A stretch of 57,301 nt of DNA from an uncultured Clostridium sp. (GTDB lineage: Bacteria > Bacillota > Clostridia > TANB77 > CAG-508): NCBI GenBank assembly GCA_947088765.1, contig CAMUHU010000001.1, forward strand, positions 1-57,301. The letters run 5' to 3'. Positions within the stretch are counted from its first letter, which is position 1, and every line of letters begins with the position of its first letter. A program made the position numbers and the translations under genes. This document shows, in pieces, positions 4,198-53,128 of this stretch. The notes under the pieces were generated by a model, which saw only the letters and a program-made list of their open reading frames with translations, had not been told where the DNA came from and searched no databases.

Positions 4198-5400
4198 TTA
4201 TCTTTCTAATAACCATTCAATTATATTTTTGTGAATAATTCCATCTCTTGAAAAATTAGCTTTGTCTAATGAAAGAACATATTTAGGATAATTGTCTTCT
4301 ATTTCTTTAAAAGCTCCAAATTCTCTATCTTGAACTTTATCATTTTGTAATAAGTATGCAACTTGAAAATATAATTTTTCTTCTGTTTTTGTTGCAATAA
4401 AATCAATTTCTACATCTTTTGTTTTTCCTATATAAACATCATATCCTCTTTCTAATAATTCATTATATACAACATTTTCAATTGCAAAGCTCTTGTTTAT
4501 TTCAAAGTTATTGTTTTTTATCCCAGCTATTCCTAGATCTGTCATATAGTATTTATTTAATGTTTTTAAAATTGCTCTTCCATGAATATCATATCTATAT
4601 ATTTTCTTTATCATTAAAGCTTTGCATAATGCATCTAAATACATATATAATGTTTCAGTTGATACAGATTTTCCTTCGTTCTTTAAAAAATTTATAACAT
4701 TCTCTGCAGAAAATTGACGCCCCGTAGTATCTACAATATATTGTAATAATAAATTAAACAAGACTGTATCCTTTAGTCCTAATCTTTCTACTACATCTCT
4801 TAATATAATAGAATCAAATACACTATGTAGATAGTCTTTTATATTACTTTCATCAGTAAATTGGGTTCTATTAGGAAGTCCACCCCATTTAACAAAATCC
4901 CAAAAAGTTTCTTCTGATTTAGCTTCTTTATTAGTAAGCTCTATAAATTCTTTATAGCTTAATGGATAAATATTAAATAATACATATCTTCCAGATAGAA
5001 CGGTTGATAATTCATTTGATAATAGCTTACTATTAGATCCAGTAATAAATATACTTATATTATCTAAAGATGCTCTTAATGAATTTACTACATCTTCAAA
5101 TCTTTCTACTTTCTGAATTTCATCTAAAAATACATAATACTTATTATTATCTACTATTTTCTCTTTTATATATGTATTTAATTTTTTATAATCTTGTAAT
5201 TCTTCAAATTCTATAAATTCGAAATTTACATATATTATATGTTTCTCATCTATCTTTTTTTCTTTTAATTCATTCATTATTTGTTTTAAGATTACAGATT
5301 TTCCACACCTTCTTATTCCAACTAATATTTTTATAAGATCACTATCATAAAAACCTCTTATTCTTGATAAATACATTTCTCTTTTTAACATTTCTATCAC
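4198..5400 (-). CDS. AAA+ ATPase (AAA_14 / DUF4143 family)
   Basis: 400 aa with Walker A GIRRCGKS and the length and layout typical of the DUF4143 ATPase family. A consensus promoter lies upstream. Confidence 0.8.
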   Translation of the reverse strand: MIEMLKREMYLSRIRGFYDSDLIKILVGIRRCGKSVILKQIMNELKEKKIDEKHIIYVNFEFIEFEELQDYKKLNTYIKEKIVDNNKYYVFLDEIQKVERFEDVVNSLRASLDNISIFITGSNSKLLSNELSTVLSGRYVLFNIYPLSYKEFIELTNKEAKSEETFWDFVKWGGLPNRTQFTDESNIKDYLHSVFDSIILRDVVERLGLKDTVLFNLLLQYIVDTTGRQFSAENVINFLKNEGKSVSTETLYMYLDALCKALMIKKIYRYDIHGRAILKTLNKYYMTDLGIAGIKNNNFEINKSFAIENVVYNELLERGYDVYIGKTKDVEIDFIATKTEEKLYFQVAYLLQNDKVQDREFGAFKEIEDNYPKYVLSLDKANFSRDGIIHKNIIEWLLER

Positions 5401-5509: not shown

Positions 5510-5535
5510 GGGCAGACACAAGGCCTGCCCCTACA
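5510..5535 (-). repeat. GTAG-headed GC-rich hairpin (REP-like)
   Basis: Plus strand GGGCAGacacaaggCCTGCCCCTACA, about 30 nt downstream of the ddh stop. Confidence 0.7.
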
Positions 5536-6703: not shown

Positions 6704-6728
6704 AGACGCCCTCTGGGCGTCCTTACAG
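6704..6728 (-). repeat. REP-like hairpin, GTAA variant, probable terminator
   Basis: Plus strand AGACGCCCtctGGGCGTCCTTACAG. On the minus strand it is followed by TATTTTTAC. It lies 24 nt after the permease stop. Confidence 0.65.
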
Positions 6729-11380: not shown

Positions 11381-11414
11381 TTCGAAGAACGGGCGATTAC
11401 TAATCGCCCCTACA
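11381..11414 (-). repeat. REP-like hairpin (CGATTA subfamily) overlapping the tex stop codon
   Basis: Plus strand TTCGAAGAACGGGCGATTActaATCGCCCCTACA. The TAG of the GTAG head is the tex stop codon (11410-11412). Confidence 0.8.
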
Positions 11415-13560
11415 GCTTCATGCTTAATGATATTTTCTGTCTATCTTTGTCTATTTTTATGACTTTTACTTTTACTATGTCTCCTACTGATACTATGTCT
11501 GATGGATTTTTTATATAACTATTACTCATTTCTGATATGTGTACTAGTCCATCATGTTTTACTCCTATGTCTATAAATGCTCCAAAGTCTATTACGTTTC
11601 TTACTGTTCCTGTTAGTACCATTCCTTCTGTTAAGTCTTCTAGTTTTAATACATCACTTCTTAGTATTGGTTTTGGCATTTCTTCTCTTGGGTCTCTTCC
11701 TGGTTTTGTTAGTTCTTCTATTATGTCTTGTAGTGTCATTTCTCCTATTTCTAATTCTTTTGCTGTTTCTTTTATGTTTATGTATTTTAGTTTTTCTTTT
11801 AATTCTTTTAGTTTGTCTTTGTTTCTTAAGTCTTCTTTTTCAAATCCTGCTTTGTTTAATAGTTTTTCTGTTTGCTCATAGTTGTCTGGATGTACTGCTG
11901 TTATGTCTAGTGCATTGTCTCCGTCTGATATTCTTAAAAATCCTGAACATTGCTCATATGCTACATTTCCTAGTTTTGGTACTTTTAGTAATTGCTTTCT
12001 GTTTTTGAATTTTCCGTTTTCGTCTCTATATTTTACTATGTTTTTTGCAATTCCTGAGTTTACTCCTGATACATATGATAGTAGTGATGGTGTTGCTATA
12101 TTTACGTCTACTCCAACTTTATTTACTGCGTCTTCTACTACTCCTGTTAGACTTTCGTTTAATGTTTTTTGGTTTACATCGTGTTGATATTGCCCTACTC
12201 CAATGGCTTTTGGGTCTATTTTTACAAGTTCTGCTAATGGGTCTTGTAATCTTCTTGCAATTGATATTGCTCCTCTTATTGAAACATTTATGTCTGGATA
12301 TTCTTCTGTTGCTAGTTTTGATGCTGAATAAACTGATGCTCCTGCTTCACTAACTATTGCATAATGTACTTCTCTATCTACTTCTTTTATCATGTCTGCT
12401 ACAAACATTTCTGATTCTCGTGATGCTGTTCCATTTCCAATGGCTATCATATCTATTTCATCTTTTTTTATTAGTTTTATTAGTTTTTCTTTTGCCCCTT
12501 CTACATCATTTTGTGGTGCTGTTGGATATACTGTTTCTGTATCTAATACTTTTCCTGTTTCGTCTATTACTGCTATTTTACAACCTGTTCTATATGCTGG
12601 GTCAAATCCCATAACTGTTTTTCCTTTTATTGGTGCTCCTAATAATAGTTGTTTTGCATTTTTTCCAAATACTTTTATTGCTTTGTCATCTGCTTTTTCT
12701 GTTAAATCACTTCTTATTTCTCTTTCTATTGATGGTTCTATTAGTCTTTTAAATGCATCTAATATGGTTGCTTTTAACATTTCTTCAAATTGTGTTTTTC
12801 CTTTTATAATGTCTCTTTCTATATATGCTATTATTTTATCTTCTGGCTTTTCTATTTTTACTTTTATTGCTTCTTCTTTTTCTCCTCTATTTATTGCTAG
12901 TATTCTATGACTTGGTATTTGATTGATTTTTTCTTTATAGTCATAATACATCTCATAATTTGTTTGTTCATCTTCTTTTGATGCTTTTGTTACTATATAG
13001 CCTTCTCTATAACAATATCCTTTTATCTTTTTTCTATATCTTGCATCATCTGATATGTTTTCTGCTATTATGTCTAATGCTCCTGCTATTGCTTCTTCTA
13101 TTGAGTTTACTCCTTTTTCTTCGTCTATATATTGTTCTGCAATTTTATTTATGTCTTCTGTTTCTTCTTGTGTATAGATTATTATACTTAATGGTTCTAA
13201 TCCTTTTGCTTTTGCAACTGTTGCTCTTGTTTTTTTCTTTTGCTTATATGGTCTATAAATATCTTCTACCTCTGCTAATGTAATTGCATTTTCTATTGCT
13301 GTTTCTAGTTCCTCTGTCATTTTTCCTTGTTCTTCAATAGATTTTTTTACTTCTTCTTTTCTGGTTTCTAGGTTTCTTAAATATGTAAGTCTTTCATTTA
13401 AGTTTCTTAAAGTTTCATCACTTAAACCACCTGTGACCTCTTTTCTATATCTCGCTATAAATGGTATTGTGTTTCCTTCGTCTATTAATTTTATTGTATT
13501 TTCTACTTGTGTATTTTTAATTTGTAATTCGTTTGCTATTGTTTGTATTATTTTTTCCAT
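11410..13560 (-). CDS. tex: Tex-like transcription accessory protein with S1 RNA-binding domain
   Basis: 716 aa with a Tex N-terminal region, YqgF-like and HhH regions and a C-terminal S1 domain (GTVRNVIDFGAFIDIG). Confidence 0.9.
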   Translation of the reverse strand: MEKIIQTIANELQIKNTQVENTIKLIDEGNTIPFIARYRKEVTGGLSDETLRNLNERLTYLRNLETRKEEVKKSIEEQGKMTEELETAIENAITLAEVEDIYRPYKQKKKTRATVAKAKGLEPLSIIIYTQEETEDINKIAEQYIDEEKGVNSIEEAIAGALDIIAENISDDARYRKKIKGYCYREGYIVTKASKEDEQTNYEMYYDYKEKINQIPSHRILAINRGEKEEAIKVKIEKPEDKIIAYIERDIIKGKTQFEEMLKATILDAFKRLIEPSIEREIRSDLTEKADDKAIKVFGKNAKQLLLGAPIKGKTVMGFDPAYRTGCKIAVIDETGKVLDTETVYPTAPQNDVEGAKEKLIKLIKKDEIDMIAIGNGTASRESEMFVADMIKEVDREVHYAIVSEAGASVYSASKLATEEYPDINVSIRGAISIARRLQDPLAELVKIDPKAIGVGQYQHDVNQKTLNESLTGVVEDAVNKVGVDVNIATPSLLSYVSGVNSGIAKNIVKYRDENGKFKNRKQLLKVPKLGNVAYEQCSGFLRISDGDNALDITAVHPDNYEQTEKLLNKAGFEKEDLRNKDKLKELKEKLKYINIKETAKELEIGEMTLQDIIEELTKPGRDPREEMPKPILRSDVLKLEDLTEGMVLTGTVRNVIDFGAFIDIGVKHDGLVHISEMSNSYIKNPSDIVSVGDIVKVKVIKIDKDRQKISLSMKL

Positions 13561-17945: not shown

Positions 17946-18127
17946 TATATCTTCCTCCTTTTATTAATTTATCTTTCACTATTGTTTTTATTATAACATA
18001 TAACATCAAAATTGCAATATATTTTTGTCACCTAAACTGTAACAGGTTACTGTATAATGGTTTTATTATATAAATTTGTGTTTGTGGGGAGGATGAATTT
18101 TTAGGTGAATTTAAAATTGTAGAGAGA

Positions 18128-18156
18128 TGTAGGGGCGATTAGCAATCGCCCGTTCT
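18128..18156 (+). repeat. REP-like hairpin (CGATTA subfamily)
   Basis: TGTAGGGGCGATTagcAATCGCCCGTTCT. Confidence 0.8.
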
Positions 18157-18193: not shown

Positions 18194-18231
18194 GTTCTTC
18201 GAAGGGCGGGCGATTAATAATCGCCCCTACA
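18194..18231 (-). repeat. REP-like hairpin (CGATTA subfamily)
   Basis: Plus strand GTTCTTCGAAGGGCGGGCGATTAataATCGCCCCTACA, inverted relative to the copy at 18128. Confidence 0.8.
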
Positions 18232-18327
18232 ACGTATATTTATAATTTTGTATAAATTTAAAAACATATAATCATCCCCACAACCCCCAATTTATGTAAT
18301 TAGCCCCATTATCTAGTAACTGTAACA

Positions 18328-18342
18328 GGGATGCCCCTACAT
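18328..18342 (-). repeat. degenerate REP-like half element
   Basis: Plus strand GGGATGCCCCTACAT. Only the head and one arm are recognisable. Confidence 0.3.
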
Positions 18343-32270: not shown

Positions 32271-32290
32271 AAGGGGCATTTGCCCCTATA
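32271..32290 (-). repeat. REP-like hairpin, ATAG variant
   Basis: Plus strand AAGGGGCAtttGCCCCTATA, 1 nt after the rbfA stop. Confidence 0.55.
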
Positions 32291-32914: not shown

Positions 32915-32942
32915 GGCGGACGCCCAAAGTGCGCCCCTACAT
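32915..32942 (-). repeat. REP-like hairpin (GACGCC subfamily)
   Basis: Plus strand GGCGGACGCCCAAAGTGCGCCCCTACAT, 9 nt after the infB stop. Confidence 0.75.
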
Positions 32943-37440: not shown

Positions 37441-37894
37441 TTACCATTCAAATTTGAGCTTTATTAAAGATATATTTTTTCTTTCTATCTCTACTATTTC
37501 TTCTTGTTGTAAGTAAATTTTATTATCATCATATTTATTTAATATTCCTTCTATTTGCTTTTGATTGTTTATTGGCTTAAATAAATTTATTGTAATTTTT
37601 TTGCCTATATTTTCCTCTAAATGTCTTTCTTTTCTTAAAACTCTTTCAACTCCTGGAGATGAGATTTCTAAAAAATATTGCTCTTTTATATAGTCTGCTT
37701 TGTCTAAAATATCATTTATACCATTATTAACTTTTTCACAGTCATTTAAATCTATTCCGTTTTTCACTGTCTATGAATATTCTTAAGAAATAATCTTTCC
37801 CTTCTTTAGAATACTCTACATCATATAATTCATATCCAAGTTCTTTAATCTTAGGAAAAATGAGAGTTTCAACTTTTTCTTCAATATTTGCCAA
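37441..37894 (-). pseudogene. rimP: ribosome maturation factor RimP interrupted by a +1 frameshift at CGG
   Basis: TTG start at 37894 behind an AAAGGAGG RBS. The frame reads ...RIFIDSE AAA CGG AAT AGA TTT AAA TGA. Skipping the C (complement of 37759) continues GIDLNDCEKVNN...SSPGVERVL to 37441. Confidence 0.85.
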
Positions 37895-38016: not shown

Positions 38017-38098
38017 CTGTATTCTCATTTTGTATGAAATTATTATACTATCTATTTCCGTAGTTGTCAATAGTTTTGAGAATAATTTTTTAACCAAA

Positions 38099-38125
38099 CG
38101 GACGCCCAAAGGGCGCCCCTACAAC
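38099..38125 (-). repeat. REP-like hairpin (GACGCC subfamily)
   Basis: Plus strand CGGACGCCCaaaGGGCGCCCCTACAAC, 3 nt after the oxidoreductase stop. A canonical terminator lies about 85 nt further downstream. Confidence 0.8.
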
Positions 38126-40710: not shown

Positions 40711-40736
40711 CGGACGCCCACATGGCGCCCCTACAT
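40711..40736 (-). repeat. REP-like hairpin (GACGCC subfamily)
   Basis: Plus strand CGGACGCCcacatGGCGCCCCTACAT, about 50 nt upstream of the asd start. Confidence 0.8.
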
Positions 40737-40920: not shown

Positions 40921-41022
40921 ATGAACAATTGTTGCTCAAATAATAGTGAAATTTTATGGTTCATTATTCTATTCCTACTACTATTTTGTTGCGGTTGTGG
41001 TAACAGATGTTGTTGTGACTAA
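40921..41022 (+). CDS. YjcZ-like tiny Cys-rich membrane peptide
   Basis: 33-aa ORF MNNCCSNNSEILWFIILFLLLFCCGCGNRCCCD with RBS AGGAGG. Confidence 0.55.
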   Translation: MNNCCSNNSEILWFIILFLLLFCCGCGNRCCCD

Positions 41023-41107
41023 TGCAAAATAAGTAATTATTTCTTTTTATCAATCCACTCTAAAAAAGAGTTGGAAAATACTTAAAGTAAACAAGGAGGT
41101 GAATGTA

Positions 41108-41245
41108 ATGCCAGAAAATAGATGTTGCGGTGGTGGATGTGGCGGATTTGGATTCGGCGGTGATTGCTGTTGGATAATAATCCTTATAATCTTACTATTC
41201 TGTTGTTGTGGAAACAATAACAATGGTTGTGGATGCGGTTGCTAA
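41108..41245 (+). CDS. YjcZ-like tiny Cys/Gly-rich membrane peptide
   Basis: 45-aa ORF MPENRCCGGGCGGFGFGGDCCWIIILIILLFCCCGNNNNGCGCGC with RBS AAGGAGGTG. Paralogous to the preceding peptide. Confidence 0.55.
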   Translation: MPENRCCGGGCGGFGFGGDCCWIIILIILLFCCCGNNNNGCGCGC

Positions 41246-41364: not shown

Positions 41365-41390
41365 GGGCACGGTACGCCGTGCCCCTACAT
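41365..41390 (-). repeat. REP-like hairpin
   Basis: Plus strand GGGCACGGtaCGCCGTGCCCCTACAT, 1 nt after the obg stop codon. Confidence 0.8.
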
Positions 41391-42700: not shown

Positions 42701-42723
42701 GTAGGGGCACATTGCATGTGCCC
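42701..42723 (+). repeat. REP-like hairpin (CACATG subfamily), left half of inverted doublet
   Basis: GTAGGGGCACATTGCATGTGCCC. Confidence 0.85.
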
Positions 42724-42746
42724 TTTTGATTTGAATGATTTTCAAT

Positions 42747-42769
42747 GGGCACATGCAATGTGCCCCTAC
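42747..42769 (-). repeat. REP-like hairpin (CACATG subfamily), right half of inverted doublet
   Basis: Plus strand GGGCACATGCAATGTGCCCCTAC, the exact reverse complement of 42701-42723. It lies 12 nt after the trpS stop. Confidence 0.85.
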
Positions 42770-46674: not shown

Positions 46675-46693
46675 TAAAAGTATTTACTTATCT

Positions 46694-47260: not shown

Positions 47261-47341
47261 AATATTAGTTATGTAGATTACATATAGCTAATAAAAAAAA
47301 TGGCTCTTAGAGCAAGTCCTACATGGGCGGAAAGGAAATTT

Positions 47342-47761
47342 ATGAAAAATTTACGGTTTAAAAAAGGAGCAGTAGTTAAATTCTGTATAGTTGGCTGTGA
47401 CACTCTCTGGGGCAGGGTAGTTAATCTTGCTGATACTGAAGTTGAAATCTGTTATCAACAGCAGGTATCAACTACTGGAGAGCTCTTTTCTAAAGATTTG
47501 CCTTATGACAATAAATTCATCACTGCCGATACTGATCATTTCGTAACTATTGATGCAGAAAAGATCTGTACGTGGGAGTATTATCGTTTTTCTTATTGCA
47601 ATAGATCTACAACATATTTCTGTAGATCTATTGAAGAGTTTAATTCTCTTCATATAAGTCATTATAAAAACGGTATCTGTACAGGCGATGAGAACGGCGT
47701 AGCTCCCTCAAGTGAAAGTCCAAAGGTTGATGTGGCTTTTGCAGGTGAGTTTAAAGGCTAA
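47342..47761 (+). CDS. hypothetical Cys-rich protein (GC-richer island)
   Basis: Start set at MKNLRFKKG with RBS GGAAAGGAAA. Has a promoter and a terminator. Contains an in-frame CGG at 47354-47356. Confidence 0.5.
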   Translation: MKNLRFKKGAVVKFCIVGCDTLWGRVVNLADTEVEICYQQQVSTTGELFSKDLPYDNKFITADTDHFVTIDAEKICTWEYYRFSYCNRSTTYFCRSIEEFNSLHISHYKNGICTGDENGVAPSSESPKVDVAFAGEFKG

Positions 47762-49455: not shown

Positions 49456-49483
49456 GCGGATGCACGAAGGGCACCCCCACAAT
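49456..49483 (-). repeat. REP-like hairpin, GTGG variant
   Basis: Plus strand GCGGATGCACGAAGGGCACCCCCACAAT, which on the minus strand reads ATTGTGGGGGTGCCCTTCGTGCATCCGC. Confidence 0.5.
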
Positions 49484-51958: not shown

Positions 51959-52189
51959 TTAGGCATTCCTAAAAGGAAATGCCTGAGTAGGTTCACCTGG
52001 TCCATAAAACCGGATGTGTCTGCTTTGAAAGTTGCCAAAAAAATAATCAATTCCTGCTTTGGCAAAATCCAAATTTAGGTTTTGGGTTGGTTCATTTTCT
52101 CTCTTTTTGCTGTTATAACAGTAAACACACCTCAAATTACATTTACTGGTCAAAAAGAAAGAAATCATTTCTTTGTTGACATGTGGCAT
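51959..52189 (-). pseudogene. radical SAM enzyme N-terminal fragment (truncated remnant)
   Basis: 76 aa starting MPHVNK with RBS AAAGGAG. It has a CNLRCVYC (CxxxCxxC) cluster and a GPGEP motif, then a stop and a terminator. There is no room for the rest of the enzyme before pnuC. Confidence 0.6.
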
Positions 52190-52281
52190 ACTTTCAACTC
52201 CTTTCATCATTATTTGGTTCTTGATTTCACATATACATCTATAAATCGTGAACCCCTTGTTGTAAGAATGCTTCCGATATT

Positions 52282-53104: not shown

Positions 53105-53128
53105 GGGCACATGCATGTGCCCCTACAG
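53105..53128 (-). repeat. REP-like hairpin (CACATG subfamily)
   Basis: Plus strand GGGCACATGCATGTGCCCCTACAG. The GTAG head starts 2 nt after the gltX stop. Confidence 0.85.

Follow-up and report, generated by a model that had tools for sequence, protein, structure and literature searches.

Dispersed GTAG-headed hairpins in DNA from an AT-rich uncultured Clostridium are probable REP elements

The locus and its repeat family

The stretch of DNA analyzed here (hereafter the window) comprises 57,301 nucleotides from an uncultured Clostridium sp. (contig CAMUHU010000001.1 of assembly GCA_947088765.1). It is AT-rich (25-31% GC across the 57-kb window), and its housekeeping genes, which include those for Obg, TrpRS, IF-2, Asd, GluRS, diaminopimelate dehydrogenase, SleB, SecG and a sortase, are of spore-forming Firmicute type. 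Between the genes lie short GC-rich hairpins preceded by a GTAG head. The initial annotation had read these hairpins as repetitive extragenic palindromic (REP) elements, i.e. as substrates for REP-associated tyrosine transposases (RAYTs), and had singled out a perfect inverted doublet of them at 42701-42769, between trpS and obg.

We compared the number of heads with the number expected from dinucleotide-preserving shuffles of the window (n=100). The exact head, GTAGGGGC, was present 13 times in the 57-kb window against 0.25 expected, and none of the 100 shuffles reached 13. A fuller pattern covering the two commonest subfamilies, GTAGGGGCRMWT-N2-3-AWKYGCCC, was found seven times where 0.00 were expected. 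The window holds 13 exact and three variant heads, all of which are intergenic. A family member was found at all 15 of the coordinates given in the initial annotation, although the head is exact at only 12 of them, since those at 6704 (GTAA), 32271 (ATAG) and 49456 (a decayed GTGG) are variants, and one exact head, at 18340 on the minus strand, had not been listed. This additional head (18333..18340, minus strand) is an isolated GTAGGGGC without a hairpin and lies at the end of the outer, neighboring repeat module described below.

Each repeat unit is 22-25 nt long and consists of T-GTAG, an 8-bp GC-rich stem starting GGGC, a loop of 2-5 nt and a return stem ending G(C/T)CC; 12 of the 13 exact-head copies in the window have this stem (range 6-9 bp) and loop. 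Folded as RNA, single units reach -12.5 to -17.6 kcal/mol. When hairpin bodies were searched for without reference to the head, all 26 that were found carried it on exactly one side (GTAG in each case except for one GTAA). The head is therefore not an artefact of the way in which copies were selected; the only GC-rich hairpins in the window that lack it are at 21105, 24817 and 18437. For base preferences, positions and orientations we used the window together with 30 loci from other genomes (275 kb of AT-rich DNA in total, with 83 heads), and in 76 of these 83 the base immediately before the head is T (p = 3e-26).

Five subfamilies coexist in the window. Copies of the ACAT subfamily, in which the head is followed by GGGCACAT-tgc-ATGTGCCC, have their heads at 26535, 42701, 42769 and 53126. 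The first of these is on the plus strand (26535..26557), downstream of the L28 gene (rpmB; also plus strand) and of that gene's own AT-rich terminator hairpin, the second and third form the doublet, and the fourth (53105..53126, minus strand) has a 2-nt loop and lies 2 nt past the GluRS stop codon. The GATT subfamily (GGGCGATT-nnn-AATCGCCC; heads at 11413, 18129 and 18230) comprises a minus-strand copy at 11391..11413, the head of which supplies the TAG stop codon of the open reading frame (ORF) 11410..13560, and a 102-nt dimer with its heads outside (18129-18151, plus strand, and 18208-18230, minus strand). The GCGCCC subfamily (GGGCGCCC-ttt-GGGCGTCC; heads at 32940, 38122 and 40734, plus the copies at 6704 and 49456) is found only on the minus strand of the window. 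Its members are 32918..32940, 11 nt past the IF-2 stop codon, and 38100..38122, 6 nt past a stop codon, each with one G·T pair; 40712..40734 in the obg-asd intergenic region; the variant GTAA-GGACGCCC-aga-GGGCGTCT at 6704..6726; and a decayed copy with the head GTGG and a broken stem at 49456..49479, which is antisense to the plus-strand genes that flank it. The two remaining subfamilies have one minus-strand copy each: ACGG (GGGCACGG-cgta-CCGTGCCC; head at 41388) at 41365..41388, 3 nt past the obg stop codon, and AGGC (GTAG-GGGCAGGC-cttgt-GTCTGCCC; head at 5534) at 5510..5534, 31 nt past the diaminopimelate dehydrogenase stop codon, with one G·T pair and an RNA fold of -14.7 kcal/mol. A short REP-like variant with the head ATAG (ATAG-GGGCA-aat-TGCCCC) lies at 32272..32289 on the minus strand.

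In every GCGCCC and AGGC copy, both in the window and in other genomes, the G·T pair occupies a constant position in the stem. Independent selection for stable hairpins would not produce the same wobble at the same place, and the copies therefore descend from master sequences.

Position and orientation of the copies

In the 83-head sample, copies lying between co-directional genes were oriented 37 sense to 7 antisense (p = 5e-6), with most of the antisense copies being the second arm of a dimer. Singletons hug the upstream stop codon: the median singleton lies 0.13 of the way into the spacer (Kolmogorov-Smirnov p = 9e-5), distances of 2-13 nt from the stop are common, and in three cases (11413 in the window, 4954 in locus L118 and 5815 in locus L205; L numbers denote loci from other genomes) the TAG of the head doubles as the stop codon. 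The initial annotation had noted that 12 of its 15 heads are on the minus strand. That count stands (10 of the 13 exact heads), but the bias tracks the direction of the local gene rather than simply the minus strand, because the plus-strand copy at 26535 follows the plus-strand L28 gene.

Transcribed copies are likely to act as 3' exonuclease barriers or attenuators rather than as canonical terminators, by analogy with the E. coli REP, for which such a role has been described (Newbury 1987, cited in PMC5581495). A promoter with a perfect sigma-70 consensus (TTGACA-17-TATAAT; 38070..38042, minus strand) is found ∼30 nt downstream of the 38100-38122 REP, ahead of rimP-nusA-infB, so that one transcription unit ends at this REP shortly before another begins.

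Dimers and the trpS-obg spacer

The doublet is, as originally described, an exact inverted pair of 23-nt units with a 23-nt spacer: both arms, 42701-42723 (plus strand) and 42747-42769 (minus strand), read GTAGGGGCACATTGCATGTGCCC, and the whole folds to -53.6 kcal/mol (z = -11.6). It lies between the trpS stop codon and the obg ribosome-binding site, in a spacer of 118 nt that is made up of 12 nt, the 69-nt dimer and then 37 nt containing that ribosome-binding site, i.e. 49 nt plus the dimer. We compared this occupied site with the same spacer in 12 metagenome relatives, the Obg proteins of which are 67-72% identical to that of the window (the closest found was ∼72%). All of them keep trpS and obg adjacent, and in all of them the spacer is 8-57 nt long and REP-free. 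The dimer therefore behaves as an insertion at this site. Most of the relatives also lack GTAGGGGC throughout ∼21 kb, compared with six or more copies in the window, while one lineage does have copies. The distribution of REPs among relatives is patchy.

The dimers that we collected comprised 52 HH (heads outside), 15 TT and 39 HT arrangements, with HH the commonest; the window has two HH dimers (18129/18230 and 42701/42769). The spacers of the 52 HH dimers are mutually unrelated, their partners often come from different subfamilies, and singletons predominate overall. The 69-nt doublet appeared only once in the window and was absent from the 112 listed REP-bearing loci described below. An 83% match of the whole doublet to the Omnitrophota locus L107 proved to be due to the REP arms alone, the two spacers being unrelated. 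The arrangement that had been called similar to a REP doublet forming a hairpin (REPIN) or to a bacterial interspersed mosaic element (BIME) is an ordinary head-outside REP dimer, and the idea that it replicates as a REPIN unit found no support in the window and the loci compared, dimer spacers not being conserved.

A ∼90-nt module flanks the GATT dimer on both sides as inverted copies (18037-18128, plus strand, and 18231-18340, minus strand), each of which ends directly at a REP head. The module contains an extended -10-like TGgATAAT, a ribosome-binding-like site GGGGAGGATGA and TTGTAGAGAgAT; a tiny ORF and a small RNA are both possible readings of it. It is also present in locus L118 (∼5250-5345) and twice in L132 (∼4590-4650 and ∼20-85).

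A second comparison of present and absent sites was provided, in the lineage that has copies, by contigs L239 and L237, which are ∼99% identical and in which the REP copies lie in two present/absent 3-kb cassettes (L239 4692-7808 and 11278-14275). We considered these island-like insertions as possible RAYT carriers and rejected them: the cassettes encode pilin-like proteins (N-terminal KGITLIALIITIIVMLILV), with GTAG REPs at the upstream edge, and there is a junction after obg with a duplicated AATGGTTTGATTAA.

The repeats in other genomes and beside RAYT genes

A scan of one genome per species with the pattern GTAGGGGCACAT-N2-3-ATGTGCCC gave at least 112 loci; none of the 112 listed shares synteny with the window. 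The matches listed include metagenome-assembled genomes (MAGs) of Planctomycetota, Omnitrophota, Armatimonadota, Chloroflexota, Kapaibacteria, Cyanobacteria, Acidobacteriota, Elusimicrobia and Fusobacteria and, also among those listed, four AT-rich (25-31% GC) MAGs of uncultured gut Clostridia (MGBC122997, MGBC114284, Lapin-022 bin15 and a Clostridiaceae bin). The clostridial loci hold all five of the window's subfamilies, with identical G·T positions, and three of them (L105, L132 and L162) have BIME-like clusters with conserved linkers. The identical 23-mer GTAGGGGCACATTGCATGTGCCC was found in MAGs of at least 10 phyla ranging from 25 to 63% GC (loci L099-L210), in which the RAYTs are only ∼31% identical (L206 compared with L117). 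This sharing across phyla suggests either that the REP sequence is strongly constrained or that it has been transferred repeatedly. A looser pattern, applied to viral contigs, returned the GTAGGGGC...GCCC frame with other stems (GAAT and GCAT) in contigs of 45-68% GC; these hairpins look like REP families of other phyla. A scan of viral contigs for RAYT genes gave only four loci, too small a number for an analysis of covariation.

RAYT genes lie beside the repeats in several of these genomes. In the clostridial contigs L119 (1783-2451, minus strand) and L206 (990-1757, minus strand) we found genes encoding proteins with the HUH and Y motifs that match Pfam Y1_Tnp and score 82.7 and 78.3 bits, respectively, against the NCBIfam model for REP-associated tyrosine transposases (NF047646, cutoff 80 bits), compared with 31 and 28 bits against the IS200 model. 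Around both genes lie ACAT REPs that match those of the window exactly. A third AT-rich contig (L302, 29% GC) has a RAYT 74% identical to that of L206, with the same ACAT REP 116 nt upstream, and RAYT homologues also accompany this type of REP in loci from Pirellulales, Omnitrophota, Acidobacteriota and Kapaibacteria. In a local alignment of the clostridial RAYT with E. coli TnpA-REP (4ER8), residues W94, Q95, E100, H101, R104, Y115 and N119 are identical; the first five of these have been reported to contact GTAG in the E. coli structure (PMC6006769). Within the window, the 153-aa ORF 47300..47761 was considered as a Y1 transposase and rejected, as it has no Pfam match.

A REP within the RAYT coding sequence

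At E <= 1e-10 the relatives of the clostridial RAYT number more than 7,600, and some carry the annotation 'REP element-mobilizing transposase RayT'. In all of the 40 closest homologues the motif G-[TH]-x-x-[CR]-A-P-T directly follows the HUH strand, in a stretch that constitutes a 17-residue insertion relative to ISDra2 TnpA. The strict motif is present in 91 of 118 hits that have the HUH motif, and in most of the remainder it is degenerate or flipped. The two middle residues of the motif are specified by mutually reverse-complementary codons in 73 of the 91 (LQ, MH, VH, AR and TR), which only 52 of the 400 ordered residue pairs would allow, and the outer pair is T...R (ACG/CGT) in 72 and T...C (ACA/TGT) in 9.

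At the nucleotide level, GTAGGGGCAC-N8-GTGCCC occurs at the position of the motif in ten genes from at least four phyla: L119 2066-2089, L206 1219-1242, L302 10297-10320, L301 10257-10280, L300 10276-10299, L291 8481-8504, L293 10294-10317, L298 1728-1751, L299 7550-7573 and L168 35-58. The embedded sequence is often a perfect double-headed palindrome of 28 nt, GTAGGGGCAC-N8-GTGCCCCTAC. Its 9-bp stem is paired in 100% of cells, and three positions change on both sides; the resulting covariation score was matched by none of 500 shuffles, and slid registers showed no compensatory change. L301 reads the palindrome in a different frame (VGAHCNVPL). The same REP also lies just outside the RAYT gene in L291, L301 and L302; in L293, L298 and L300 the internal REP was the only one seen in the DNA examined. 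The REPs at L168 35-104 lie inside the RAYT ORF and do not flank it. In this clade, every RAYT gene harbors a REP in its coding region, just past the HUH strand, which is translated as G-T-x-x-R/C-A-P-T and has been kept by compensatory changes, its stem interior varying in paired positions only. Enzyme and substrate are thereby physically coupled.

Further in-frame REPs are present elsewhere in RAYT genes, at 1390-1412 and 1629-1651 in L206 and at 1820-1842 in L119, as well as in the genes for RAYT proteins P0003-P0011, P0021, P0033 and P0034. An AT-rich clostridial subset has 'VGAHCMCP' near the N-terminus, and other RAYTs have tandem or C-terminal copies. Since these extra copies are in frame and at other positions, REPs evidently insert repeatedly into the RAYT gene and leave its frame intact.

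We found no description of the embedded REP in Nunvar 2010, Di Nocera 2013, Bertels 2017, Quentin 2018 or Corneloup 2021 or by full-text search, which is not proof of novelty. It is possible, although we put this forward only tentatively and consider the opposite the better bet, that the embedded REP is functional, i.e. that it serves either as a master template that seeds or homogenizes the dispersed REPs or as a site through which the RAYT regulates itself. A functional embedded copy would, if real, also explain how the identical 23-mer comes to be present in at least 10 phyla despite RAYTs that are ∼31% identical.

Interpretation and alternatives

We interpret the hairpins as GTAG-tagged REP elements, i.e. 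non-autonomous repeats generated and maintained by a RAYT encoded elsewhere in the genome, and estimate the probability of this reading at roughly 85%. The identification as REP elements made in the initial annotation is borne out by the combination of head and palindrome, the subfamilies, the inverted doublets, the insertion behavior and the association with RAYT genes. By analogy with the characterized TnpA-REP enzymes, such an HUH/Y1 enzyme would bind the folded hairpin on single-stranded DNA, read the GTAG head, and cut and rejoin next to it. TnpA-REP cleaves C|T adjoining the REP, guided by GTAG, and the T stays on the REP side (Corneloup 2021, PMC8266576); the near-invariant T before the head may be this retained base. 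The expected target of the clostridial RAYT would be single-stranded T-GTAG-GGGCACAT...ATGTGCCC, and T-GTAG-GGGCACATTGCATGTGCCC, also single-stranded, is a putative substrate of the L206 or L302 enzyme. A copy would then be retained where it does no harm or is of use as a transcribed stem-loop past a stop codon.

Several observations weigh against this interpretation or limit its reach. Neither tblastn with the clostridial RAYTs nor a Pfam check found a RAYT in the 57-kb window, and because of this a RAYT in the window's own genome can only be inferred. The initial annotation had proposed a search for a Y1 transposase flanked by inverted REP copies; Y1 transposase genes do lie beside REPs in the clostridial contigs L119, L206 and L302, but the REPs flanking them are direct, not inverted. 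In the DNA compared, no usable shared orthologues link the RAYT-bearing MAGs to the host of the window. Transcription and replication orientation are inseparable, as most genes lie on the leading strand, and the orientation bias may reflect either transcription or the strand specificity of single-strand transposition, with only the copy at 26535 arguing for transcription. A few copies (38118, minus strand, and 42703, plus strand) do have terminator-like tails, and any role at the RNA level is extrapolated from work on E. coli REPs.

The absence of a RAYT from the window would also follow if the REPs were fossils, i.e. if the RAYT had been lost from the genome and the copies persisted because their transcribed hairpins are useful or because they decay slowly. 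Decayed copies do exist (49456 and the head-only 18340), most relatives around obg are without REPs, so that lineages can be REP-free, and the strong sense, stop-proximal bias suggests selection on position. However, elements of 65-75% GC in a genome of 28% GC should decay fast, yet most of the stems are perfect, and the arms of the doublet are identical both to each other and to RAYT-adjacent copies in other species. Moreover, RAYTs are usually single-copy (PMC5581495), and the absence of one from a 57-kb sample is therefore expected. We consider loss of the RAYT to be unlikely.

The same positional bias, with most copies downstream of genes and in the sense orientation, would be expected of ordinary Rho-independent terminators or unrelated stabilizing hairpins that resemble one another only through the constraints on a GC-rich stem, and a consensus terminator scan of the 30-50 kb stretch did flag three family members, namely 38118 (minus strand), the antisense arm at 42703 (plus strand) and the 32272 variant. 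It flagged no others, and the clear terminators of that stretch, at 46676 and 47792, look different, with stems of 10-14 bp followed by a run of T. At least five T in the 8 nt after the stem were found in only 20 of 75 copies, 18 of the 75 being A-rich there, and 55 of 75 lack a U-tract. As the copies are mostly sense, abut stop codons and usually lack U-tracts, they are not ordinary Rho-independent terminators, in which a GC-rich stem is followed directly by a U-tract. Unrelated hairpins would also leave unexplained the identical 23-mers, the conserved unpaired T-GTAG head, a G·T wobble shared between copies and between genomes, the association of RAYT genes with the same sequence, and a dimer located within the conserved trpS-obg pair, ahead of the ribosome-binding site of obg. 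This explanation, which the initial annotation had named as an outcome that would count against REPs, is contradicted above all by the shared T-GTAG head and the RAYT association, and is very improbable. Equally short, conserved and enriched between genes, and at times found as inverted pairs downstream of them, are DNA uptake sequences (DUS) or uptake signal sequences (USS) and other protein-recognition sequences, for which the inverted pairs would be due to chance. Several subfamilies with different stems and the same head, the presence of the same elements alongside RAYT genes in at least 10 phyla, an in-frame copy inside the RAYT gene itself and the lack of evidence for a link to competence leave this explanation with next to no probability.

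Other features of the window

An Rfam scan of the window found no family that covers the REP elements; its sole match was a ZMP/ZTP riboswitch elsewhere, at 21116-21196 on the minus strand (RF01750; 45.1 bits, gathering score 39). This riboswitch includes the GC-rich hairpin at 21105-21126, which was rejected as a REP. The hairpin at 24817-24839, GGGCACGA-N7-TCGTGCCC, resembles a REP body but has AAAG or TTTT at the head site; it may be a decayed relative of the REPs or an ordinary terminator. Three genes appear to be damaged: the L28 gene (rpmB, ∼26300-26497, plus strand) has a 1-nt frameshift near 26340, with the repaired protein giving a full-length TIGR00009 match, the RimP ORF (37441-37767, minus strand) lacks ∼45 N-terminal residues, and 51959-52210 (minus strand) encodes only the N-terminal part of a radical-SAM enzyme. 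These are likely to be indel errors in the assembly. Two small Cys/Gly-rich ORFs convergent with obg (40921-41022 and 41099-41245, both plus strand) have a hydrophobic core (e.g. ...CCGGGCGGFGFGGDCCWIIILIILLFCCCG...) and no NCBIfam match.

Significance

To our knowledge, work on REP/RAYT systems has dealt almost wholly with Proteobacteria, and we know of no one who has so far shown the route by which REPs are copied in vivo or the reason for their persistence. Dense REPs of several subfamilies in a gut Firmicute of 28% GC provide a contrast case, in which birth and decay are easy to read against the base composition. Their sense, stop-proximal placement would allow effects on mRNA 3' ends and translation termination to be tested directly in a Gram-positive background, where the RNases differ. 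The embedded REP, if it is confirmed as new, would provide a handle on the co-evolution of transposase and substrate, and surveys restricted to extragenic flanks would miss it. The REPs also explain the GC-rich hairpins, odd TAG stops and peptides such as 'VGAHCMCP' and 'GTLQRAPT' in predicted proteins that are encountered in uncultured Clostridia and many other phyla.

Comparison with known systems

The closest counterparts of the window's repeats are the GTAG-1 to GTAG-24 REPs of Di Nocera, De Gregorio & Rocco (2013, PMC3733652), in which GTAG likewise stands unpaired at one end; their stems, of 6-9 bp, include G·T pairs, their loops measure 2-5 nt, and their sub-families show complementary stem changes. 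They also form HH dimers 20-100 bp apart, lie mostly downstream of ORFs, in some cases donate the TAG stop from the head, and are occasionally found inside ORFs. The window differs from that set in its AT-rich (∼28% GC) uncultured gut Firmicute host, its five coexisting subfamilies and the near-invariant T before the head. The GTAG repeats were surveyed in Proteobacteria, Cyanobacteria, Chloroflexi and the PVC group, with Firmicutes and Clostridia never mentioned (PMC3733652), while Group 1 RAYTs have been noted as "also found in the Clostridia" (PMC5581495). The host phylum is thus new relative to the main REP surveys, but the clostridial novelty suggested initially is softer than claimed, given that both GTAG REPs outside Proteobacteria and RAYTs in Clostridia had already been reported (PMC3733652, PMC5581495).

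The enzyme can be compared with E. coli TnpA-REP (RAYT group 2; PDB 4ER8; PMC8266576), which, like the clostridial RAYT, is an HUH/Y1 enzyme, with the same catalytic and GTAG-contacting residues. The similarity is only local (E = 0.0035), and the clostridial protein has the REP-encoded insertion of ∼17 residues after the HUH strand. In the E. coli REP/BIME system the REP is recognized while single-stranded and folded, with a 5' GTAG, as predicted here, and C|T cleavage next to the REP fits the T at -1, whereas the E. coli REPs are longer and have a bulged stem. REPINs (Bertels & Rainey 2011; PMC3116915) resemble the doublet in consisting of two inverted REPs that form a long hairpin and in being tied to a single-copy RAYT, but a REPIN is defined as a replicating unit that includes its spacer, whereas here the HH spacers are unrelated, the partners often mixed and singletons predominant. 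Finally, the IS200/IS605 elements (IS608, ISDra2) also use Y1 HUH chemistry, have subterminal hairpins accompanied by a 5' guide tetranucleotide and act in a strand-specific manner on single-stranded DNA. The clostridial proteins nevertheless score ∼30 bits on the IS200 model against 78-83 on the RAYT model, and the repeats of the window are independently dispersed 23-nt hairpins rather than the ends of an element that carries its own transposase.

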